Of a stretch of 23,481 nt of DNA, positions 11,662-20,737 are shown one piece after another. The notes beneath the pieces are model-generated. The model did not search any database. It was not told the origin of the DNA and saw nothing but the letters and a program-made list of their open reading frames with translations. A program made the translations under genes and the position numbers. The stretch is from a virus. Location: UHGV virus genome UHGV-0138297; one strand, given 5' to 3'. Position 1 is the stretch's first letter. Every line of letters begins with the position of its first letter.

Positions 11662-13860
11662 TTACTGCTGTGGTTGTTGCTGAGTTGATTTTTGCAGGAT
11701 GCTGCTGATGTCCATGCGCTGCGCATGGCCCTGTGCCTGACTTTTCAGGACAAGCTCCGCATCAGCACGGGCATTGTCTCCTTGCTGTTGCTGGAACTGT
11801 CCGAGCAGTTTCAGAGCCTCGCGGATATCAGATTTCTGCTGGCTATCGGCAGATGCGAGGATTTTCACAACATTTGCCGCTGCAACCTGAGCATCAGTCT
11901 GTGCCTGGAATGCTTTAACCTGAATGGCTGCCTGTTCGTTCTGCGCTTTCTGCAATTCAGCCTGACCAGCAAGAAGCTGACCTTGCGCAGCAACCATAGC
12001 CGGATCCGGCTGACTGGCCTGTTGTTGTTTCGCCTGCTCAACCATCTGCTGTTCTTCTGGTGTTCTCGGCTTAATAACGCCAGACAGAAGCAACTGATTG
12101 CGGTTGTATTCTTTAAGGTCGTCCATCCCTTCGCCGTCCATATTGTCGAGAATCATCGACGATACAAGGTCATGCTTCGGCGTTCCTGGCGGGATAAGTG
12201 CCAGCATGGAAAGTAACGACTTAACCGTTGCATCACGGCGAGTAGCGAACGACTGACCGACATCGACAGTCACTTCATAGTTACCCTGCGAAAGGTCGTT
12301 AAGCGCGATAACCTGCCCTGTCTGACGGTCAACCACTTCACCAGTCATCAGCGCCACGTCATCGCTGCCGTCCTCATTAACGATGCGCATTGGCGTATCG
12401 CTGCCATAGACTTCACGCGCCATAGAAAGCCACACAACGCCAGCGCGGCGCATGGATTTAGCCATGTTGTCCATGTAGATATAGGACTGCGTGTCCATCC
12501 GGTTAAAAATGCTATCAACGGTATCGGTGGCGACGTTGCTCGGCATGTTCTCAAGCTGCGACGCACCTGTAATTTGCTGAATAGCCGTTCCGGTGTACTG
12601 CAATAGCCCGGCAAGAGCAGGAGGCATTTGTGTTGGAGGAGTCCAGCCAGCAACCTGAGCCTCTGAAATGACTGTTCCGTTTTTGTCCTTCTTGCTGGTC
12701 ATAGGAAGAACTGCTGGTCTTTTCTTATTCCTCTCTGCCCAGTGATTCATTAATGGACCGGGAATGAAATCAACATCCACGATAGGAATGCCATCACCGC
12801 CAGCCTGAGTAGCGTTATCTGCAATCATGGAAACCATCAGGTTCTCAAGACGCTGTGCATCCATCGCTTTTGCTGCGTGGCCTTCAATTCGCTCCTGATT
12901 ATCAACAAATGAGCGACGCCCATATACCGGGATGAGAGGAATATGTTCACCCGGAATACGCTTCGGTTCTTCCAGCCATTCAGCGCCAGACAGAAGACCG
13001 CAATAAACGCGGCGCTTCTTCACCGTTCGCTCGCCAATCAGTTCGAATGCACCATCGGTCAGCTCGTCGACAATATCTTTGATTTGCTCTTCATCATAGA
13101 TTGCCGTTTCTCCGCTAACAGGGTTGCGCCACGCCGTGAGCTTCACCTTCTCTATGCGAACTTCGTAGTAGCGTCCAACATAGATGGCATCGGGCGTTGA
13201 CCAGTCATATTGAGTGCCAGTGTCATCACGAGAAAGGCTTGCCGCGATGGAATCAGGGTATTCAGCCTCGAACGCTTTAGGCGTCATGGAGAACATTTCC
13301 ATAGCCCACATAGCATCAGAGCGGTCATATTGCTTGCTGTCCTGATCGAAGAAGACGCATGTCGCTGGGTCGTAAACAGGAAGAAGACTGATGCGTCGCT
13401 GCTCGTTACTCGGATCCATTTCATCTTCGTAATCGGCACACATGCGGAAACAACCGAATCCGCCCGTTACAGCATCATCAAATGCGTTATCACACGCTTC
13501 GCCACCGGATGTTTCCTGATAGTCAGCGCGGAATTTGCCGTTCATTTTTTCGGCTAACGCTTCCGATGCCTTGTCATCCTTAGGCCTGAACTTAACGCTG
13601 ATGCGATTCTGTCGATACTCGCCAATGATGCGATCACATTCACGGGCAATCTTATTCAGTTCAAAGCGCGGGTAATGCTCAAACCTGCCTTCATCAAATG
13701 AGTAACCAGCGTTTGTGCTGCCTTCCCACTGTGCGCCGGATACCCGGACGAAACGTTGAGCCTCAATAATCTGCTCACGCATATCCTGCGTTGCTGACCA
13801 GGCATTATCAAAGTTGCACAGCACCTTGCGATGCCAGTCAGTCATCTTTTTTTCTGCCAT
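11662..13860 (-). CDS. Portal protein, P22 gp1-like
   Basis: 732 aa. Several blocks match P22 portal as I recall it (RRVY, GEHIP.IPV.G, PDPAMV.AQG.LL.GQAEL.KAQN, RMDI) and it has the long Gln-rich C-terminal helix. The start is 1 nt after the terL stop. Confidence 0.93.
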   Translation of the reverse strand: MAEKKMTDWHRKVLCNFDNAWSATQDMREQIIEAQRFVRVSGAQWEGSTNAGYSFDEGRFEHYPRFELNKIARECDRIIGEYRQNRISVKFRPKDDKASEALAEKMNGKFRADYQETSGGEACDNAFDDAVTGGFGCFRMCADYEDEMDPSNEQRRISLLPVYDPATCVFFDQDSKQYDRSDAMWAMEMFSMTPKAFEAEYPDSIAASLSRDDTGTQYDWSTPDAIYVGRYYEVRIEKVKLTAWRNPVSGETAIYDEEQIKDIVDELTDGAFELIGERTVKKRRVYCGLLSGAEWLEEPKRIPGEHIPLIPVYGRRSFVDNQERIEGHAAKAMDAQRLENLMVSMIADNATQAGGDGIPIVDVDFIPGPLMNHWAERNKKRPAVLPMTSKKDKNGTVISEAQVAGWTPPTQMPPALAGLLQYTGTAIQQITGASQLENMPSNVATDTVDSIFNRMDTQSYIYMDNMAKSMRRAGVVWLSMAREVYGSDTPMRIVNEDGSDDVALMTGEVVDRQTGQVIALNDLSQGNYEVTVDVGQSFATRRDATVKSLLSMLALIPPGTPKHDLVSSMILDNMDGEGMDDLKEYNRNQLLLSGVIKPRTPEEQQMVEQAKQQQASQPDPAMVAAQGQLLAGQAELQKAQNEQAAIQVKAFQAQTDAQVAAANVVKILASADSQQKSDIREALKLLGQFQQQQGDNARADAELVLKSQAQGHAQRMDISSILQKSTQQQPQQ

Positions 13861-13861
13861 A

Positions 13862-15340
13862 TCAACCTACACCACAAGGAATTGAGTAACTGGAATAGTC
13901 GGGTTGCGAAGCCGACTCCGGGCAATGCATACACATCATCAGCGCATCAGCCAGGTTAGGAGATGGAATACCGAGCTTCTGCTTCATTTCGACTTTGGTC
14001 ATCAGCTCAAGCTTTCCGTTACCGTTGAATTTGCGTTGGATCTGCGTTAGCTCTGCGAATAGCTTGTTGAGGATATTCTCTCCAATAGCCTCTTTGTCAA
14101 AGCTAAGCATTTCATCAGGGTCGGCGTATTCACCATGCTCTACCGCCCGGTATGTTCGATAAAGCCTGTCAGCCAGCGTGTAATAGAACTGCGCTCGCTT
14201 GTTTCGGAATACATCTCCAATAGTGCGGACGTTATCACCCTGCACAACTTCATCAGTCCATGCCCCAGCCTGATATGGAGCATCTTCGTCGAATGGCGAT
14301 TCACTACCTTTAAACATTGTTACGGTGACTTTCTTTCCACTGAAATAGTCTGTTATCTGTCGACGAAGCCCTGCTCCAAGTCCATCTCCATCAAACAGGA
14401 AATGATCAACATCATCGATTACCGCCAATGAAGATGCCCAATCAGCACCCTCGTTTATATCCATGAGCAGCCCTTCACATACGCGCTTAACAACTGATCC
14501 ATGTCGCACTGCATATCCTTTGGCATCTGGGCCGGTGTCTGACGGGTCATGCGCTGCAATCACTGCACCTTTAGCTTTCCATCCGAGCTTAATGTGGGCG
14601 TCTGTTGCAGCCTCTAACCATGCAAACTTGATAATAGCCATTTCTGATGCCCCCACCGGTTCACCAAGATACACATGCCGATAAAGCTCGTGATTAGCCT
14701 TCTTCATAATCTCCATATCCCTGCGGAGAGTTTCCGGGAACCATGGATTAGCTGTGTAGTTGATCTGCTTGACGATGCAGTAGCGATTACCGTTTTCGTC
14801 ATAGTCGGGGTATATGCGATTCGTAACAAAGCGCTGATGTGTATCGCTGAGTCTGTTCTTCGGGTTGTATGCAACCCATATTTCCGACTCAACCACTCGA
14901 CCATACTCAGCGCTGTAGAACTCTTTACGTACCGTTGGGATAAGCGTTTCCCATGAGTCCTTTGATACGTTTTCTGCTTCCTCTACAAGGGCGGCATCGA
15001 AGTTTGCGTAACCTTTGATATTTTCCACGTTAAGGCGCAGGAAGTCGAAACTGATACGTCCGCCGCTATTGGCAAATATCTCTGTCTTATTGATAGTCAC
15101 CAGTGAGTGGAGGTTTCGGCGGTTAATCTCTTCAACAATTTCCGCATAGCATGATTCCTTGATGGACTTCATGTACTCACGAAAACAGATAAGCTTCCAT
15201 CCGTGATAGATGACGTTATTGAGGAGGATTGTTATGAACGTTCGCGTCTTGGCGGAACCTCGCCCGCCATAAGCTACCTTGAATCTGGCTGGCTGCAGGT
15301 ATTCCTCAAACGCTTCAGGAATGCTGCATTGCTCTGTCAT
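13862..15340 (-). CDS. Terminase large subunit
   Basis: 492 aa with Walker A motif GGRGSAKT near the N-terminus. Overlaps terS by 4 nt. Confidence 0.93.
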   Translation of the reverse strand: MTEQCSIPEAFEEYLQPARFKVAYGGRGSAKTRTFITILLNNVIYHGWKLICFREYMKSIKESCYAEIVEEINRRNLHSLVTINKTEIFANSGGRISFDFLRLNVENIKGYANFDAALVEEAENVSKDSWETLIPTVRKEFYSAEYGRVVESEIWVAYNPKNRLSDTHQRFVTNRIYPDYDENGNRYCIVKQINYTANPWFPETLRRDMEIMKKANHELYRHVYLGEPVGASEMAIIKFAWLEAATDAHIKLGWKAKGAVIAAHDPSDTGPDAKGYAVRHGSVVKRVCEGLLMDINEGADWASSLAVIDDVDHFLFDGDGLGAGLRRQITDYFSGKKVTVTMFKGSESPFDEDAPYQAGAWTDEVVQGDNVRTIGDVFRNKRAQFYYTLADRLYRTYRAVEHGEYADPDEMLSFDKEAIGENILNKLFAELTQIQRKFNGNGKLELMTKVEMKQKLGIPSPNLADALMMCMHCPESASQPDYSSYSIPCGVG

Positions 15341-15780
15341 TGCGTCTCGCTTTTTACAATGTTATACACTGGAGCTTTTGGAGCCATGGAGCCGTCATCA
15401 GATGTATGGTTGACGTCCTGCTTCTCTCGCCATTTATCTTTCTGTCTGTTCTTGAGCCAGAAGATGGCGGCAGTTGTATCAGGCGGGTAATACTTCTTAA
15501 GCGGAGTTTCGACAATTCTGTTTTCAATAACACGAATATCGATGTCTGGAGCCACGAAGCCCATAGCGCGTTGATAAAGACGGTCACTAACTTCTGCATC
15601 AGCGACGGCCTTACCCTTTTTTATGGACTCCGAAAACTTAGGATAATCAAGCTTCCACTTGTTAATAGTTGACTCACTGACTTCAAAGAAATCAGCAAGT
15701 TCTGCGTCTGTATAGCCCAGCAAGCACAGTTTGCGTGCCTGTTCGGCATACGCCTCTTGATACTTTGTTGGGCGCGCCAT
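15337..15780 (-). CDS. Terminase small subunit
   Basis: 147-aa ORF immediately upstream of, and overlapping, terL. Predicted HTH-like N-terminal region. Confidence 0.8.
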   Translation of the reverse strand: MARPTKYQEAYAEQARKLCLLGYTDAELADFFEVSESTINKWKLDYPKFSESIKKGKAVADAEVSDRLYQRAMGFVAPDIDIRVIENRIVETPLKKYYPPDTTAAIFWLKNRQKDKWREKQDVNHTSDDGSMAPKAPVYNIVKSETQ

Positions 15781-15782
15781 GT

Positions 15783-16025
15783 TTATGCTCCGGTAGTGAA
15801 CAGGTCTAACGCTTCCTTCGATTTACGCACCGCTTCGATAGTGCGGGTCGTGATATCCGAATTAGCGCCGCCTGACTGGAAGTGAATTTTGAATAGCTCA
15901 AGCTTCAGCTCGTCAGTGCCAATGAACTGAAATGCTTCTTCTGCGGCTGCGTTCTGGTTCATGACCAGTTTGTAAATCTCTAACTGGAATTTCTGTTCTT
16001 CAGTCATGGGAATAATCTCTGCCAT
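15783..16025 (-). CDS. Hypothetical protein
   Basis: 80-aa ORF whose stop is 3 nt before the terS start. No recognisable family. Confidence 0.55.
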   Translation of the reverse strand: MAEIIPMTEEQKFQLEIYKLVMNQNAAAEEAFQFIGTDELKLELFKIHFQSGGANSDITTRTIEAVRKSKEALDLFTTGA

Positions 16026-16128
16026 TGTTGGCTCCGTTTATCCGTTAAAAGGGATATCAGTTAAGTTATCCCGTGTAGGGTATAAGCCATTATCAAAGCC
16101 ACTCTGTAGGGAATGGCTTTTGTAATAA

Positions 16129-16500
16129 CTACTGTTCGCTTAGCTTCTGCTTCAGCAAGTAACCTTCAAGCATCCAGATTTTGTTTACAGCATTCTGCCG
16201 GGCAATCTTCCGACCAATTTCTGCATCAAAATTTTCCGGACTTGCACAGGCACTCTCTCCGGTGACGGTGAAGCCGTTGCGCAGCACCAGGACGCAGAAC
16301 GTCAGCAGAGAAAGTGATTCGTGCGGCTGGTAGTTTACCTCTCCGCCAGTATGTTTCGCTTTTATGGCTTTGCCAAAGGCACCATCCTCTGCTGTGAAAT
16401 ATGCCTCCTGAGCAATAATTCCTTCGATATGGTCTGGCGTAACGCGCGGTGCCGTTTTGCCTTTCTCAACGATTTCTTTTTCGATTTGCTGGTCGTTCAT
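16129..16500 (-). CDS. Phage protein, probably N4 Gp49 / Sf6 gp66 family
   Basis: 123-aa ORF upstream of terS. The family call is from memory of the sequence pattern and is not certain. Confidence 0.65.
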   Translation of the reverse strand: MNDQQIEKEIVEKGKTAPRVTPDHIEGIIAQEAYFTAEDGAFGKAIKAKHTGGEVNYQPHESLSLLTFCVLVLRNGFTVTGESACASPENFDAEIGRKIARQNAVNKIWMLEGYLLKQKLSEQ

Positions 16501-16725
16501 AATTATGACCCTGTAGAGTGGTTGCTTGATTAGGATGTCTTTCCATCAGTCCGCCACCACAAAGAATCTTTTTTGCCATAAGGCAGGAGGTTCATCTTTC
16601 AGTGGCTGCCAGTGTTATTTCCCCACTTACTGGCTTGGGTTGTTTCGCGGTACTTCCGTAACTGGTTGCCCAGAATAAATTCCGGTTTCATTATCAAGCC
16701 CACCAGTAGATGGGCTTTGGAATGG

Positions 16726-16989
16726 CTACTTCACTTTTGCTTTTGCTTCCGCTCGCTTACGCCGGCGCTCTTCTTTCCTCTCGGCTTTTGCCATGTCCAT
16801 GAATGCCTGCATGATCGAGTTCCGCATCATGTAGCTAACAAAGTGATGATTGACACAGCCGTTTAGGCGCAGCTGCTCGCCAAACTCATCCACCGAGGCC
16901 AATGCTTCCATCATGCCCTTCTCGCCTTTCATGAACTCTGAGAAGTCGCGCCCCGCTCTGGAGGCGCATTCAATGACACGATCACTCAT
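16726..16989 (-). CDS. Hypothetical protein with basic C-terminal tail
   Basis: 87-aa ORF overlapping the KilA-N gene stop (ATGA). Lys/Arg/Glu-rich C-terminus. Confidence 0.5.
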   Translation of the reverse strand: MSDRVIECASRAGRDFSEFMKGEKGMMEALASVDEFGEQLRLNGCVNHHFVSYMMRNSIMQAFMDMAKAERKEERRRKRAEAKAKVK

Positions 16990-17483
16990 CCCGGAAGCCC
17001 GGGGATCGTAATCTGCAGCTGGTTAGCCAGGGAGTTAATCTCAGCGACCAACACTGGCTTCGTATAGCGCCATGCCGCCAGCCCTTGTCCGCAGAAACTC
17101 GCCATGTCTTTCTTCTGGTCAAACTCATGACATTTCATGTTGAGCTGCGCACTTAAGCTGTTGCGATGCTGAAGTTCTCCGGTGAAGTAGTCATCGAGGA
17201 CTTTATAGGCCGCGTACTTGAACCCGGGGTTTAACCAAGCCGCATAATCGTAAGCAACAAACTTCCCGCCATATGTTCCACCGTGTACACCGCGCTCAGT
17301 AAAAACCACAGATTCGTGGTTTTTCTCCAGCTCGGCTAAGAACTCTTTGGTCTGCTTGTTTCGCAGGTAGTGGTAAGGCGATTCAGATTCACTTTTACCA
17401 CTGGCTTTCCACATATCAGTGAGGCAGATCATGCCATCTTCACCGATACGAATTGGTTGATTGAAGAGGGTTAATGATTTCAT
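16986..17483 (-). CDS. KilA-N domain protein
   Basis: 165 aa. The N-terminal region (IRIGEDGMICLTDMWKASGK...) resembles the KilA-N DNA-binding domain. Confidence 0.75.
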   Translation of the reverse strand: MKSLTLFNQPIRIGEDGMICLTDMWKASGKSESESPYHYLRNKQTKEFLAELEKNHESVVFTERGVHGGTYGGKFVAYDYAAWLNPGFKYAAYKVLDDYFTGELQHRNSLSAQLNMKCHEFDQKKDMASFCGQGLAAWRYTKPVLVAEINSLANQLQITIPGLPG

Positions 17484-17598
17484 AGCGTGTACCTACTCTT
17501 TGAAATGAACCTTTGCCGCACAGGAAACCAGCCCACCGAGGCTCGCCAGCACTAACTGGTATCCTCAAAGGCCCATTCCAAAGGGGCAGGTTCGGTGT

Positions 17599-17652
17599 AA
17601 AAAACATGCGTTGCGGTACGCATTTATTGGAAAAAGCCCCGCATCGCGAGGC
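17599..17652 (-). terminator. Two tandem rho-independent terminators downstream of the lysis cassette
   Basis: On the minus strand: hairpin GCCUCGC-GAU-GCGGGGC followed by UUUUU (plus 17631-17652), and hairpin AUGCGU-ACCGCA-ACGCAU followed by GUUUUUU (plus 17599-17623). Confidence 0.55.
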
Positions 17653-17684
17653 TCATTAAATGGACTTTGTGATTTGCAAAAAAA

Positions 17685-18152
17685 TTATTTCAGGCATTGC
17701 GTCCTGATGTATTCCTGCAGGTAGTTAACCTGCGCGGTTATCTTGTCGATTCCACTTCGTAGACGGTAATAATTGAGTTCAGCATCTGCTGTAAGTCTTG
17801 GGCTTTCTCCATCGCCCATGCTGCTGGCTCCGGTCGTTGACTTTGCACAGGTGGCGGCGACTTGCAGCCGCTTACGGCCAGCAATGACATCGCTATGCAG
17901 ACGCTCAATGGTTTCTTTCGCATCAGCCAGTTCTCCGGTGTATTTGGCATCCAGTGCAGCGACATCACGCTGGCGGGTCTGCATGTCTTTAATGGTGGCG
18001 GTCGCCAGGAGGAGTTTCTCAGTGGCCTTATCGCGCTGGTCTCTGTAAGTGATGGCGTTGTCGCGGTAGTGGTTCACGAAGAAAGCCAGTGCGCCGATTA
18101 ACGCCAGCACCAGCAACTGCAGCCAGTAACGCTTAACCAGTGCGCTAATCAT
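17685..18152 (-). CDS. Rz: i-spanin Rz
   Basis: 155 aa, closely similar to lambda Rz as I recall it ([16 protein letters not shown].....[21 protein letters not shown]). N-terminal TM segment. ATGA overlap with the lysozyme gene. Confidence 0.9.
17738..17923 (-). CDS. Rz1: o-spanin Rz1 (lipoprotein), embedded in the +1 frame of Rz
   Basis: Starts at the internal Met ([20 protein letters not shown]...), has a lipobox (VSGC) and a Pro-rich mature region. It lies entirely inside Rz. Confidence 0.78.
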
Positions 18153-18598
18153 GACAGGAACAGAGCTCGCTCTGCCTTGCGGCGATTCGTGAGCCCCGGC
18201 ATCACCTTTCCGCCTGATTTATTCCAGCGCAGAAATTCATCTGCCGCGCCTTTTATATCGCCAGCATTCAGCTTTTTCAGCAGTGTAGATGTGGAAAGAG
18301 CACGCGACCCAACGTTGTAAGCGAACGACACCAGTGCGTCGAACTGGCCTTGTGTCAGCTTCACCCTGACAACTTTCAGCACGTCATTCTCATAACCAAC
18401 AAGCCCTGTTTTCAGAAGCCTGTCAGCGGTTTGCTGGTCGATAGTCATACCGCGCTTTACTGGCTTTCCGTCAACCGGATGGGTCCAGCCATAGCCGATG
18501 GTCCACGGCGCATCTCCCGTTCCGGGGTCTGGGTAAGCAGTCAGCCGACAACCTTCAAATTTTTTTATCAGAGCAATTCCGTCAGGACTGGTTTGCAT
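18149..18598 (-). CDS. Phage lysozyme (T4/P22 gp19-type, GH24)
   Basis: From the internal Met ([24 protein letters not shown]...) the protein matches the P22 gp19 pattern and ends ...[18 protein letters not shown] lies 6 nt upstream. The ATG sits inside the holin 3' end. The ORF-track start at 18670 is an upstream extension. Confidence 0.9.
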
Positions 18599-18899
18599 CG
18601 TCAACTCCCGCCTTTTTTGCTGCAAGTTTTTTAATAAGATTGCCGATCGAATCGGTGCCGATGTATCCAATAAAGACGCTGGCTATGTAGGCGAGGTTGC
18701 TGCTCAGGCCGATAAAGTCCAGAAGGTCACGAACGAACCAGGCAATCATCGCGCACATCAGCGCATCAATTAGCGTTTTTGTTACCGCGCCGCCGTTATA
18801 GCGACCACGCAGATACGCCATGATAAAAGCCAGCATTGCACCAATACCCTGCTCCTTGGCGGCAAGTAGCGCAGCGATGAAATCTTGTTTGTATGGCAA
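18582..18899 (-). CDS. S: Class I holin, lambda S-like, probably TTG-initiated
   Basis: Sequence from ...[31 protein letters not shown]... to the C-terminus is near-identical to lambda S as I recall it. I place the start at TTG 18899 (SD GGAG 6 nt upstream, 10 nt after the HNH stop), which gives 105 aa. The alternative ATG at 18935 overlaps the HNH gene by 26 nt and adds a 12-residue Arg/Lys-rich extension. Confidence 0.85.
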
Positions 18900-18909
18900 T
18901 TTTTTCTCC

Positions 18910-19410
18910 CTACGCCTGGCACGCGAATTGACCATGATATTTCCCCCTAAACTCTGAGATTACCAACTCAGCAAGTTCGAGATCATCGAAGTAACCCAAC
19001 CAGATCTGCTTCTTATTTCTACTTCCGCAAACTCTCCATTTCCCATTCTTAACATCAAGCCTGACGCCCTTTATGGGATTCTTTCCTCCGGATGGTTTGC
19101 GTCTGTTATATTGATTTTCTGATTTGGTCGATAATCTGAGGTTTTTAATGCCATTGTTTAATGGGTTTCTATCTAAATGATCCACGTCCATTTCTGGCAT
19201 GCATCCATATACATACAACCAAGCCAGCCGATGCTCTTTATAGATTTTCCCATCTATACGTATTTGCCTGTAACCAGATCCATTAATCGTTCCAGCTCTT
19301 GAGCCAACTTTAATTCTGCGATTGCTGGATTTAACCCAAGTAAAAACCCCTGAAACAGGCTCATAGTGCATAAGGCTTTTCAGGACTTGCTGAGTGATTA
19401 CCATCTTCAT
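18910..19410 (-). CDS. HNH homing endonuclease with AP2-like DNA-binding domain
   Basis: 166 aa with an HNH motif region ([46 protein letters not shown]) and an AP2-like C-terminal segment ([28 protein letters not shown]). AT-rich relative to its neighbours. Start context is GAGGAGAGAGACT-ATGAAGATG. Confidence 0.88.
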
Positions 19411-19502
19411 AGTCTCTCTCCTCGCAATAGAAGCGGGAGCTGTGCGTTGTAGAGAAGCGCCTCACCCATTGCGTTTAAGGGGTAAGTGTTTAGCTGTATG
19501 GA

Positions 19503-19527
19503 TGGTCGCGAATAAAAAAGCCCACGG
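19503..19527 (-). terminator. Rho-independent terminator in the late leader, upstream of the HNH gene
   Basis: On the minus strand: GCCCAC-CGCGCC-GUGGGC followed by UUUUUUAUU. Confidence 0.6.
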
Positions 19528-19792
19528 CGCGGTGGGCAATAGAGGGTAGTGCGTTGAGCTTTTGCTCTTATGGTCCTGGTAGGTATTTGGTGTGTGGTGA
19601 CCGGTGCTGTGTTTTCCGGCATGTAAATGAACTACCCGTCGTCGCCATGGTGAGCCTTTACCTCACCATCTAGCTGATAAGTTAGCGCATCAGCCTGCGC
19701 ATTCACCACAACGATAATTGCACTGCGCCTGTTTCGGTTAGCGTAACGGGATTAACCGGTCACCCCAATGCAATTATCTGTTGTGCAGATAC

Positions 19793-19821
19793 AAAAAAGC
19801 CCCGAGCTATTAACTCAGGGC
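19793..19821 (-). terminator. tR'-like terminator ending a short (~57 nt) late leader RNA
   Basis: On the minus strand: hairpin GCCCUGAG-UUAAUAG-CUCGGGGC followed by UUUUUUGU. The flanking sequence (...TTTTTTGTATCTGCACAACAG...) resembles the sequence after lambda tR' as I recall it. Confidence 0.7.
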
Positions 19822-19857
19822 TTTATTTAACGAGTGCATTTATCCATCGTTGAGTCA

Positions 19858-19886
19858 AATTTACCCAACTTTATTCAAAAAGTCAA
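19858..19886 (-). promoter_or_regulatory. Late promoter pR' (lambda type), presumably containing the Q binding element
   Basis: Minus strand reads TTGACT-17 nt-TAAATT, then TGACTCA and ACGATGG; TTGACT is at plus 19881-19886 and TAAATT at 19858-19863. This is almost the same as lambda pR' as I remember it. It lies directly downstream of Q, with the predicted +1 near 19850. Confidence 0.8.
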
Positions 19887-19928
19887 TATCATGCCGTTAA
19901 TATGTTGCCATCCGTGGAAATCATGCTG

Positions 19929-20552
19929 CTAACGTGTGACCGCATTCAAAATGTTGTCTGCGATTGACTCTTCTTTGTGGCATTGCACCACCAGAGCGTC
20001 ATACAGTGGCTTAACAGTGCGTGACCAGGTGGGTTGAGTAAGGTTTGGGATTAGCATCGTTACAGCGCGATATGCGGCGCTTGCTGGCATTCTTGAATAG
20101 CCGACACCTTTGCATCTTCCGCATTCTTTCTCAACAACTCTCCCCCACAGCTCTGTTTTTGATATATCAACCGCACGGCCTGTACCGTGGCAATCTCTGC
20201 ATCTTGCCCCCGGCGTCGCGGCACTACGGCAATAATCCGCATAAGCGAATGTTGCGAGCACTTGCAGTACCTTTGCCTTAGTATTTCCTTCGAGCTTTGC
20301 CACACCACGGTATTTCCCCGATACCTTGTGTGCAAATTGCATCAGATAGTTGATAGCCTTTTGTTTGTCGTTCTGGCTGAGTTCGTGCTTACCGCAGAAT
20401 GCAGCCATACCGAATCCGGCTTGTGATTGCGCCATCCCCATAGCAGCCATCACATCAGTACCGGAAAGAGAGTCAGAAGCCGTGGCCCGTGGTGAGTCGC
20501 TCATCATCGGGCTTTTTGGCGAATGAAATTTAGCTACGCTTTCGAGTCTCAT
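19929..20552 (-). CDS. Q: Late antiterminator Q (lambda type)
   Basis: 207 aa, essentially matching lambda Q as I recall it (MRLESVAKFHSPKSPMMSDSPRATASDS...), including the zinc-binding Cys cluster CRDCHGTGR...CGRCKG. Confidence 0.93.
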   Translation of the reverse strand: MRLESVAKFHSPKSPMMSDSPRATASDSLSGTDVMAAMGMAQSQAGFGMAAFCGKHELSQNDKQKAINYLMQFAHKVSGKYRGVAKLEGNTKAKVLQVLATFAYADYCRSAATPGARCRDCHGTGRAVDISKTELWGRVVEKECGRCKGVGYSRMPASAAYRAVTMLIPNLTQPTWSRTVKPLYDALVVQCHKEESIADNILNAVTR

Positions 20553-20737
20553 GGCCTTCCCCTTTTTCCCTGTTTGACCATCAGGACGCCGTTAACTATT
20601 ACGTGACGCTCGCCTTTGCTGTCTCGGTTGTACTTGAGCACTGTTCCTCTTGCGCAGGAAAGCATCCTCGCCACTTCGGTCTGATTGCCTCGTGTCTGGA
20701 TAAGAAGCTCTGGTATCGTTTGAATTGTGGCGTTCAT
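20549..20737 (-). CDS. ninH: NinH-like small DNA-binding protein
   Basis: 62 aa. The motif TIPE/DML....GNQTEVAR.L.CSRGTV.KY......G....IVN.VLMV matches lambda NinH as I recall it. ATGA overlap with Q. Confidence 0.78.
   Translation of the reverse strand: MNATIQTIPELLIQTRGNQTEVARMLSCARGTVLKYNRDSKGERHVIVNGVLMVKQGKRGRP

Follow-up and report, generated by a model that had tools for sequence, protein, structure and literature searches.

A lambda-type late switch with the short-leader allele, followed by a tRNA slot that holds a conserved hairpin and an apparently undescribed tRNA-like scaffold RNA

In phage lambda, the late promoter pR' is transcribed constitutively and, according to the lambda literature, this yields a short RNA unless the antiterminator Q is present. 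The sequence AACGAT at the start of the lambda transcript induces a sigma-70-dependent, promoter-proximal pause at which Q loads, and reading through several terminators in series is a normal property of the Q-modified polymerase. The short RNAs regulated by antitermination that have been listed are lambda 6S RNA and its equivalents in phages 21, phi80, 82 and P22; StxS, which Stx phages produce by termination of the pR' transcript, has a regulatory function, and in these phages tRNAs are located between tR' and stx (PMC7547250). Sites at which RNase III processes the lambda late leader were mapped by Daniels et al. (1988; cited in PMC7547250). In this study, we have analyzed the corresponding region of the UHGV virus genome UHGV-0138297, a stretch of 23,481 nucleotides (nt) that is referred to here as the window and in which all the features described lie on the minus strand. 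Its organization is, very probably, that of a standard late switch with a short-leader allele, followed by a tRNA slot that is occupied by a long hairpin, named hairpin A, and by a scaffold RNA. The switch comprises the following elements.

19929..20552, minus strand: Q antiterminator gene, 207 amino acids (aa), of which 206 are identical to lambda Q (Pfam Antiterm PF03589, E = 1e-57)
19858..19886, minus strand: late promoter pR' (TTGACT-17-TAAATT) with the qut element between the hexamers, from the promoter scan, the lambda comparison and annotated relatives
19846..19851, minus strand: AACGAT, a -10-like element at the transcript start (+1 to +6), identical to lambda 44587-44592
19793..19851, minus strand: short late leader RNA of about 55-59 nt, counterpart of lambda 6S RNA, from the fold and the lambda comparison
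Stem 19824..19796 and T-run 19798-19793, minus strand: tR' intrinsic terminator, with a stem of 13 base pairs (bp) and T6, from the terminator scan and the fold, and annotated in phage Emek

The resemblance to lambda is close, with 99% of Q in common, the same promoter, a Q-binding element that differs by two mismatches in the interval between -35 and -10, the same AACGAT and the same first 23 nt of the transcript. The promoter lies 43 nt after the stop codon of Q, its -35 hexamer runs from 19886 and its -10 hexamer occupies 19863-19858, and it is the sole sigma-70-like site returned by the promoter scan in 18800-20700. An ungapped comparison gives 52 matching bases out of 58 from -35 to +23, in agreement with the first-pass annotation of this DNA, which had claimed a lambda-like promoter and about 20 lambda-like nt of transcript; from +24 the divergence is complete. 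Counted in the same way for the two phages, with the A of AACGAT as the first base and the last base of the T-run as the final one, the leader has 59 nt here and 193 nt in lambda, close to the 57 and 194 nt first proposed, and it folds with -23.3 kcal/mol (z = -4.6); the terminator hairpins of the two phages are unrelated. The likeness to lambda resumes just past the T-run, with GTATCTGCACAACAG in the window and ATATCTGCACAACAG in lambda, so the alignment bears out the earlier impression of lambda-like ends on both sides of the leader. Homology to lambda 6S RNA (about 194 nt) is thus restricted to +1 to +23 and does not run over its full length. Raw counts of promoter-like and terminator-like sites in the scans show no excess over shuffled sequences, and it is the homology to mEp235, HK97, HK022 and Emek, where the sites are annotated, that places pR' and the terminator beyond chance. 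The locus contains a sigma-70 promoter after the Q gene, a cognate Q, qut together with AACGAT, and a nearby intrinsic terminator, as expected of a lambda-type switch, and Q-dependent readthrough at pR'/tR' is predicted from its sequence identity to systems that have been characterized by experiment.

The short leader is not peculiar to the window. A blastn comparison of positions 19400-19930 with 50,697 phage records showed 100% identity to mEp235 over the first 137 nt, which span the end of Q, pR', the leader and tR', 97-99% identity to HK97, HK022, HK544, HK542, mEpX1 and the P22-like Emek over the first 137-147 nt, and 94.6% identity to HK620 and HK633 over 147 nt. On the same bases, GenBank records carry the labels 'promoter similar to lambda PR'', 'Qut site with 2 bp mismatch' and 'rho-independent terminator', and the identical sequence is annotated as pR'/qut in mEp235, HK544 and HK633. 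A probe specific for the short leader found 48 phage records, and one for the long lambda leader found 30, mostly laboratory derivatives of lambda; the hosts of the short allele include Escherichia, Salmonella, Klebsiella, Cronobacter, Pantoea and Hafnia. Since the short leader is both common and annotated in GenBank records, the feature flagged in the first-pass annotation is already known, as the annotated short-leader allele of the lambda-type late switch. That annotation had also described the leader as if its middle had been deleted or replaced. A recent deletion from the lambda 6S RNA region would explain the matches to lambda on both flanks (-35 to +23, and 15 nt past the T-run), but it is highly improbable, because the 35 nt from +24 to the T-run, which contain the whole terminator hairpin, have no counterpart in the lambda leader or tR'. 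Furthermore, the allele, fixed in no fewer than 48 phage records with hosts in six genera, is also joined to a different type of Q, in an Escherichia coli prophage (L003, 2380-2510) where the same tR' hairpin, hairpin A and scaffold follow another promoter and a 254-aa Q. The mosaic joint in that prophage lies near the transcription start. Rather than a shortened lambda leader, the short leader is an alternative mosaic allele which, judging from these comparisons, reflects module exchange. The textbook 194-nt leader of lambda is then the minority form, and the short one a portable module that is found even with other Q types.

In genomic position and in its origin by termination at tR', the leader also resembles IsrJ (Rfam RF01393) and StxS, which are associated with other Q types. 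The isrJ model matches directly upstream of hairpin A in four sister loci (L031, L032, L034 and L039), while the window leader scores 19 bits against it (E = 0.53), below the gathering score of 37, and so is not assigned to the family. Unlike for IsrJ and StxS, we know of no Hfq binding or target for the window leader.

Right past the T-run, mEp235 and Emek diverge from the window and run on to the holin gene without hairpin A or scaffold RNA. In the window, the interval between tR' and a second terminator holds a structured RNA cassette that the first-pass annotation had missed. The 380 nt from tR' to the next gene, which encodes an HNH endonuclease, found no match in the phage collection by blastn, and several E. 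coli prophages contain them, unannotated, at 100% identity. The cassette and the end of the slot consist of the following parts.

19707..19785, minus strand: hairpin A, a 19-bp stem with one bulge and a replaceable interior of 40 nt, from the fold and covariation
19588..19712, minus strand: tRNA-like scaffold RNA, from the minimum-energy fold, covariation and the alignment of its CCA
19538..19587, minus strand: conserved 3' trailer of the tRNA slot (AATACCTACCAGGACCATAAGAGCAAAAGCTCAAC...), common to 69 loci with any slot occupant
19514..19537, minus strand: terminator 2 (stem 19537..19520, T-run 19519-19514), which closes the tRNA slot, from the terminator scan and stem covariation

When the trailer sequence was scanned against IMG/VR, 69 loci were found, in which it is preceded by a tRNA-Asn gene, by arrays of two tRNAs, by nothing other than a tR'-type terminator, or by the scaffold element. 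The occupants of the slot, be they tRNA-Asn, tRNA arrays or the scaffold, end in CCA followed immediately by AATACC, and in sister prophages the last 80 nt (trailer and terminator 2) come directly after a genuine tRNA-Asn whose CCA abuts the trailer. The stem of terminator 2 covaries across loci (e.g., GCCCAC..GTGGGC and GCCAGC..GCTGGC). Since the 69 loci keep terminator 2 whatever precedes it, it represents the conserved end of a lambdoid late-leader tRNA slot and is not specific to the HNH gene. A second terminator ahead of this gene had indeed been proposed; its existence stands, as does the need for polymerase to read through two intrinsic terminators in series before the first late gene, and only its position, given as 19503-19527, was about 10 nt off. 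The slot, the trailer, the terminator and the exact position of the CCA are those of the tRNA genes that follow pR' in lambdoid and Stx phages; unlike these genes, the occupant in the window is not a decoding tRNA, since it lacks an anticodon arm as well as D and T loops of the canonical kind.

Two further observations concern the slot. Trailer and terminator 2 together (19514-19587) resemble a small RNA derived from a 3' trailer, with an A-rich single strand, a terminator hairpin and a U tail. In a prophage region of E. coli E2348/69 that lies next to a portal gene (L002, 1571-1686), hairpin A is followed by a 113-nt tRNA-like gene whose D and T arms are normal and whose 'anticodon' loop has 11 nt, TTGCCATTGCT; PGAP labels it a pseudogenic tRNA-Gly. 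The loop is kept in a second locus (L022), and the stem below it changes in a compensatory manner between the two, from CCATGC/GCATGG to CAATGC/GCATTG.

Hairpin A begins in the lambda-like sequence past tR', which forms its 5' strand. The two strands of the stem are CACAAC-A-GATAATTGCATTG and CAGTGCAATTATC-GTTGTG, with a bulged A, and the hairpin folds with -34.3 kcal/mol (z = -4.5). Among 74 distinct homologues, 94.4% of the cells pair, a figure favoured by the choice of the 5' partner as the best complement within 160 nt, which has to be held against it; slid controls pair in 36-62%. Both sides have changed in 11 of the 19 pairs, with 125 doubly changed cells as compared with 31 in column shuffles (0/500). 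The same hairpin is present in lambda (44786-44862), where both the sequence of the stem and the interior differ. By analogy with the lambda late leader, hairpin A is probably a processing hairpin of the RNase III type. Its 3' strand, GTTGTG, doubles as the start of the scaffold element, and in one locus (L024) the triplet CACAAC / GTTGTG / CACAAC is changed in concert to ACAGC / GCTGT / CACAGC.

The scaffold is built from the following parts.

19712-19703 and 19600-19593, minus strand: closing stem, in which GTTGTGGTGA pairs with TCACCACA
19700-19685, minus strand: hairpin B, GCGCA-GGCTGA-TGCGC, with the loop GGCTGA
19684-19620, minus strand: variable insert of 65 nt
19619-19601, minus strand: hairpin D, CCGG-loop-CCGG, which stacks on the closing stem
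19590-19588, minus strand: CCA, at the aligned position of the tRNA-Asn 3' CCA of sister loci

Folded by itself, the scaffold segment forms a four-way cloverleaf at minimum energy. Across 59 distinct scaffolds compared with the insert masked, 94.1% of the cells pair, against 27-56% in slid controls, and nine pairs have changed on both sides, against 2.2 +/- 1.0 in shuffles (0/500). Such changes are found in the closing stem (GTTGTGGTG/CACCACAAC to GATTGGATG/CATCCAATC), in the stem of D (GCCGG/CCGGC to GCAGG/CCTGC, GTAGG/CCTAC or GCCTT/AAGGT) and in the stem of B (GCGCA/TGCGC to GCGTA/TACGC), and the closing stem of lambda's own copy reads GTTGTGCTG/CAGCACAAC. Nearly all the remaining variation in the stems is of the G-U type on the sense strand, which favours a structure in RNA over one in DNA. 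The window copy has the parts by which we propose to define the family, namely the closing stem, hairpin B with the loop GGCUGA, an insert, hairpin D with a loop that contains YAGY and a 3' strand CACCACA; its D loop is divergent (AAAACACAGCA) yet keeps CAGC. The comparisons show that RNA structure is conserved in both hairpin A and the scaffold.

In lambda, positions 44784-44947 (L006, 985-1148) contain hairpin A and a reduced, closed multibranch element at 44857-44941, followed by CCA. Both elements fold with z about -4, the closing stem covaries with respect to the window, and they lie in an unannotated part of the late leader.

The same substitutions bear on whether the inverted repeats might act as DNA, as a recombination site or as a cruciform for cassette exchange. 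Constant flanks around a replaceable insert do resemble exchange sites, and CACAAC / GTTGTG / CACAAC is at once a direct and an inverted repeat. However, the stem variants are mostly G-U on the sense strand (e.g., 15 G-U at 34-56 and 6 U-G at 9-58) and would be A-C mismatches on the other strand or in DNA. The orientation of the element, moreover, always matches local transcription, and in one locus (L063) it is flanked by a promoter and by a terminator-like hairpin, the latter read by eye. A function at the DNA level is accordingly very unlikely; the constant flanks are probably used for homologous exchange, but this would follow from their being conserved.

The likeness to tRNA is limited to the acceptor/T-like minihelix and the position of the CCA. 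The B loop (GCUGA) is complementary to the D loop (UCAGC), with pairing in 94.6% of the cells, and a contact between the two could plausibly substitute for the tRNA elbow. Several points weigh against a conserved tRNA-like RNA of this kind. The changes in the paired B and D loops are one-sided only, the B loop being almost invariant; the T-like loop has 9-11 nt and no T-loop consensus, and the stacked helix has 13-14 bp rather than 12. The CCA is missing in some alleles, for example in the commonest, CPS-53-type copy. ARAGORN finds no tRNA in the window, there is no match to RF00005 at E <= 10, and the element cannot be assigned to the tRNA family. In a fold of the whole 296-nt region, the base of hairpin A wins GTTGTG and the acceptor-like stem is not formed; since hairpin A competes for the shared strand, the cloverleaf may need prior cleavage or co-transcriptional folding. 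Most homologues, in addition, were retrieved by exact-word seeds, which fix parts of the alignment. A G-1:C73 pair like that of histidine tRNA is present in some scaffold alleles and not in the window copy.

The scaffold is widespread. An exact 28-mer from its 5' part is found in at least 120 IMG/VR contigs and in 627 of 5426 complete E. coli genomes (about 12%), and no annotated feature lies under the match in the twelve records sampled. Downstream of the 28-mer there is invariably an insert of 30-176 nt, which leads into the constant sequence (A/T)(A/T)G-GCCGG-AGATCAGCA-CCGG(C/T)-CACCACA, and the inserts fall into about 44-60 mutually unrelated classes among 158 instances. In a scan of one genome per species, which gave 23 hits, two of them spurious, scaffolds appeared in many genera of Enterobacterales, in Aeromonas, in metagenome-assembled genomes of Pseudomonas and Moraxellaceae, and in four genera of Burkholderiales (prophages of Massilia, Ramlibacter, Xenophilus and Undibacterium). 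All of these scaffolds have nearly identical B and D hairpins and unrelated inserts; in the distant genera, the prophage contexts vary, and no conserved protein partner was found among the flanking genes. The cryptic K-12 prophages DLP12 and Qin carry no copy.

In CPS-53-like prophages, the scaffold occurs without hairpin A. Upstream, a TTGACA-18-TACATT promoter reaches to within 10 nt of its first base, and downstream comes a terminator-like hairpin with a T-run that was recognized by eye but not by the scan. Having its own promoter and no hairpin A, this copy looks like an independent RNA gene, which fits the idea that hairpin A generates the 5' end of the scaffold when this is embedded in a long transcript. 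The commonest allele (L063, 8018-8260, with about 12 similar loci; L004, L005) is found in CPS-53-like prophages of extraintestinal pathogenic E. coli (UTI89, APEC O1, S88, NU14 and CE10), with a LexA/CI-like repressor gene on one side and yfdP on the other, and it may be expressed in the lysogen. Elsewhere (L045, L024), scaffold RNAs stand in tandem arrays with real tRNAs, tRNA-Ser-like in L045, and with reduced elements of the lambda type. Directly downstream of another copy (L064, 264-330, minus strand), there is an Rfam int-alpA match of 43.7 bits, above the gathering score.

This distribution also bears on the possibility that the region between the terminators is non-functional mosaic filler, made of tRNA pseudogene debris and recombination scars, with the ribosomal RNA-like piece of the insert as a passenger. 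The pseudogenic label of the E2348/69 sister element would suit such an origin, as would the empty slot of some phages, a truncated slot (L025), and an element that has no known function and went unannotated across the 627 E. coli genomes, as far as the twelve sampled records tell. On the other hand, four helices and hairpin A are preserved by substitutions of the compensatory and the G-U-compatible kind, and between E. coli phages and the prophages of Massilia, Ramlibacter, Xenophilus and Undibacterium the scaffold hardly varies while its insert is fully replaced. Some copies have a promoter of their own and the terminator-like hairpin read by eye, and the insert class of the window, described below, is kept in about 20 loci with different flanks and wobble-compatible changes. 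Mosaic filler is thus an unlikely explanation, and we return to the scaffold as a conserved RNA.

The insert of the window is, in part, a copy of a piece of ribosomal RNA (rRNA):

19635..19681, minus strand: copy of 16S rRNA helix 11 within the variable insert (Rfam small subunit (SSU) model, 33.2 bits, E = 1.2e-7)

In sister loci (e.g., L071), the bacterial SSU model is matched at 237-283, which is helix 11. A metagenome scan with the 47-nt core of the insert, leaving one position free, returned 11 phage scaffolds and two genuine 16S genes (L236 and L242), recognized by their flanking 16S sequence; the first of these we take to be actinobacterial. Identity to E. coli 16S rRNA is 86% over 29 nt. 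Since the core matches genuine 16S genes, the insert is true helix-11 sequence of a non-enterobacterial type. It corresponds to helix 11 (about 240-286 in E. coli) in its 47-nt core and in the bacterial positions of the Rfam model; unlike helix 11 in the ribosome, it is an isolated fragment grafted in a phage RNA, and not of the sequence type of the E. coli host. The class comprises about 20 loci, in scaffolds whose 3' tails differ, with few substitutions, which are wobble-compatible. By blastn-short, the other insert classes show chance-level 9-12-mers only against E. coli rRNA, and among 22 sister loci they match no Rfam family at permissive E-values. As no other class resembles a known RNA, rRNA mimicry is a property of the window allele and not of the family, and it cannot be generalized. 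Inserts antisense to the window's own genes were considered as well and are not supported, blastn-short again returning chance-level 9-12-mers only.

Searches among known RNAs gave little else. At gathering thresholds, Rfam 15 matches nothing in the whole window and nothing on the scaffold in 16 sister loci; in permissive searches (E <= 10; 19350-19950 and 22 sister loci), it returned only helix 11, tRNAs, and isrJ on neighbouring leaders. ARAGORN reports no tRNA or transfer-messenger RNA (tmRNA) in L002-L005. A tmRNA was rejected for the window, where ARAGORN finds none, the weak matches to tmRNA models in sister loci falling outside the scaffold; a phage antisense RNA of the C4 or CI type was rejected as well, with no Rfam C4 match at E <= 10 in 19350-19950. 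Hammerhead-like motifs (CUGAUG, GAAAC) seen by eye violate the core and stand in the wrong order. Searches of the literature in 8 million full texts, by concept and by literal sequence, retrieved no description of the scaffold, which is absence of evidence within these resources; a preprint on the Pas small RNA and a paper on phage L proved unrelated.

Stable or RNase P-processed tRNA-like RNAs of phages comprise species 1 and 2 of T4, C4 of P1 and P7, and CI of P4. Among bacterial RNAs, Y RNAs are described as mimicking tRNA (PMC4201824). Like all of these, the scaffold would be a small non-coding RNA with tRNA-like stems, located inside phage transcripts or tRNA clusters; unlike them, it has no match to their sequences or models, Rfam C4 and Y-RNA-like families being absent at E <= 10. 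To our knowledge, none of the T4, P1, P7 and P4 RNAs or the Y RNAs has a constant scaffold around dozens of unrelated inserts. The closest parallel in design is man-made: Ponchon and Dardel reportedly engineered a 'tRNA scaffold' for recombinant RNA expression. There, too, the anticodon arm is swapped for an arbitrary structured RNA that the scaffold protects and that is processed with it; the engineered version was derived from a real tRNA, whereas the one in the window is natural and would have a kissing-loop elbow in place of the D and T loops. The scaffold is therefore an apparently undescribed, widespread RNA family, with no prior description found.

Downstream of the slot, the late region begins with a gene that is a later arrival:

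18910..19410, minus strand: gene for an endonuclease with HNH_3 and AP2 domains, the first open reading frame (ORF) after the leader (Pfam HNH_3, E = 8.6e-15)

The AP2 match, at 25 bits, is below the Pfam cutoff. One locus (L026) is without exactly this ORF (about 503 nt) and another (L003) without the whole segment 19510-18903, and in both the homology jumps from the region of terminator 2 to the holin gene. On this comparison, the HNH gene is a later insertion between terminator 2 and a lambda-type holin gene, and it looks like a free-standing homing endonuclease. The junction also bears on a 71-aa ORF at 19407..19622 (minus strand) which, if it were a real small gene, would let coding account for the conservation in this region. 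Its stop codon overlaps the start codon of the HNH gene (ATGA), an arrangement that resembles translational coupling. But no Shine-Dalgarno sequence precedes its ATG, it spans the 3' strand of the scaffold, the trailer and terminator 2, so that the varied sequences found upstream of the trailer elsewhere would destroy its frame, and the HNH junction is itself an insertion boundary. A real gene is extremely unlikely here, and the ORF is probably spurious. The rest of the late region (11662-18935, minus strand) encodes a lambda-type holin S, lysozyme and Rz, a KilA-N/ORF11CD3 protein, a Terminase_3 large subunit and a P22-type portal; given a lambda-type lysis cassette together with a P22-type portal, the phage is a mosaic of P22-like and lambda parts. 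One IMG/VR genome (L017, IMGVR_UViG_3300029162_000071) is 100% identical to the window across the 2.4 kb compared.

Taken as a standard switch with an occupied tRNA slot, the locus would work as follows. Transcription would start constitutively at pR', and the polymerase would pause at AACGAT. In the absence of Q, it would terminate at tR' after about 57 nt, releasing a small RNA that is the counterpart of lambda 6S. With Q bound between the hexamers, the polymerase would become resistant to terminators and pass tR' and terminator 2 into the HNH gene, the lysis genes and the P22-like virion genes, so that hairpin A and the scaffold would be transcribed only after antitermination. Cleavage by RNase III at hairpin A, and by RNase P with 3' trimming at the acceptor-like stem, might then excise the scaffold. 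In the excised RNA, the acceptor-like stem would sit on the T-arm-like hairpin, the D-arm-like loop would pair with the T-like loop, and the variable module would take the place of the anticodon arm. The scaffold would stabilize the module and display it as a small RNA, with the module serving as a decoy or binding site; in the case of the helix-11 allele, the target would be a factor that recognizes helix 11 of 16S rRNA. This model of excision, display and decoy action is one that we infer, and it counts against it that where the transcripts end, how the scaffold RNA is processed and how stable it is are matters of prediction.

We tentatively propose, as a possibility somewhat short of even, that the family consists of tRNA-like, processed scaffolds which display interchangeable cargo, and that the allele of the window is a mimic of rRNA made in bulk late in infection. 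If so, the helix-11 module could, for example, act as a decoy for an RNA-targeting defence, for an assembly factor or for a ribosomal protein, the candidates among proteins that bind this helix in the 30S subunit being S17 and S20, and the variety of cargo would be the outcome of an arms race or of targets that differ between hosts. Conserved nearly base for base as far as the prophages of Burkholderiales, the scaffold would be the natural parallel to the engineered tRNA scaffold and a candidate for a new class of phage accessory RNA. The helix-11 allele turns this into a concrete and testable hypothesis, the mimicry of a defined rRNA helix, and the reduced copy at 44786-44944 of lambda would make the question testable in the best-studied phage.

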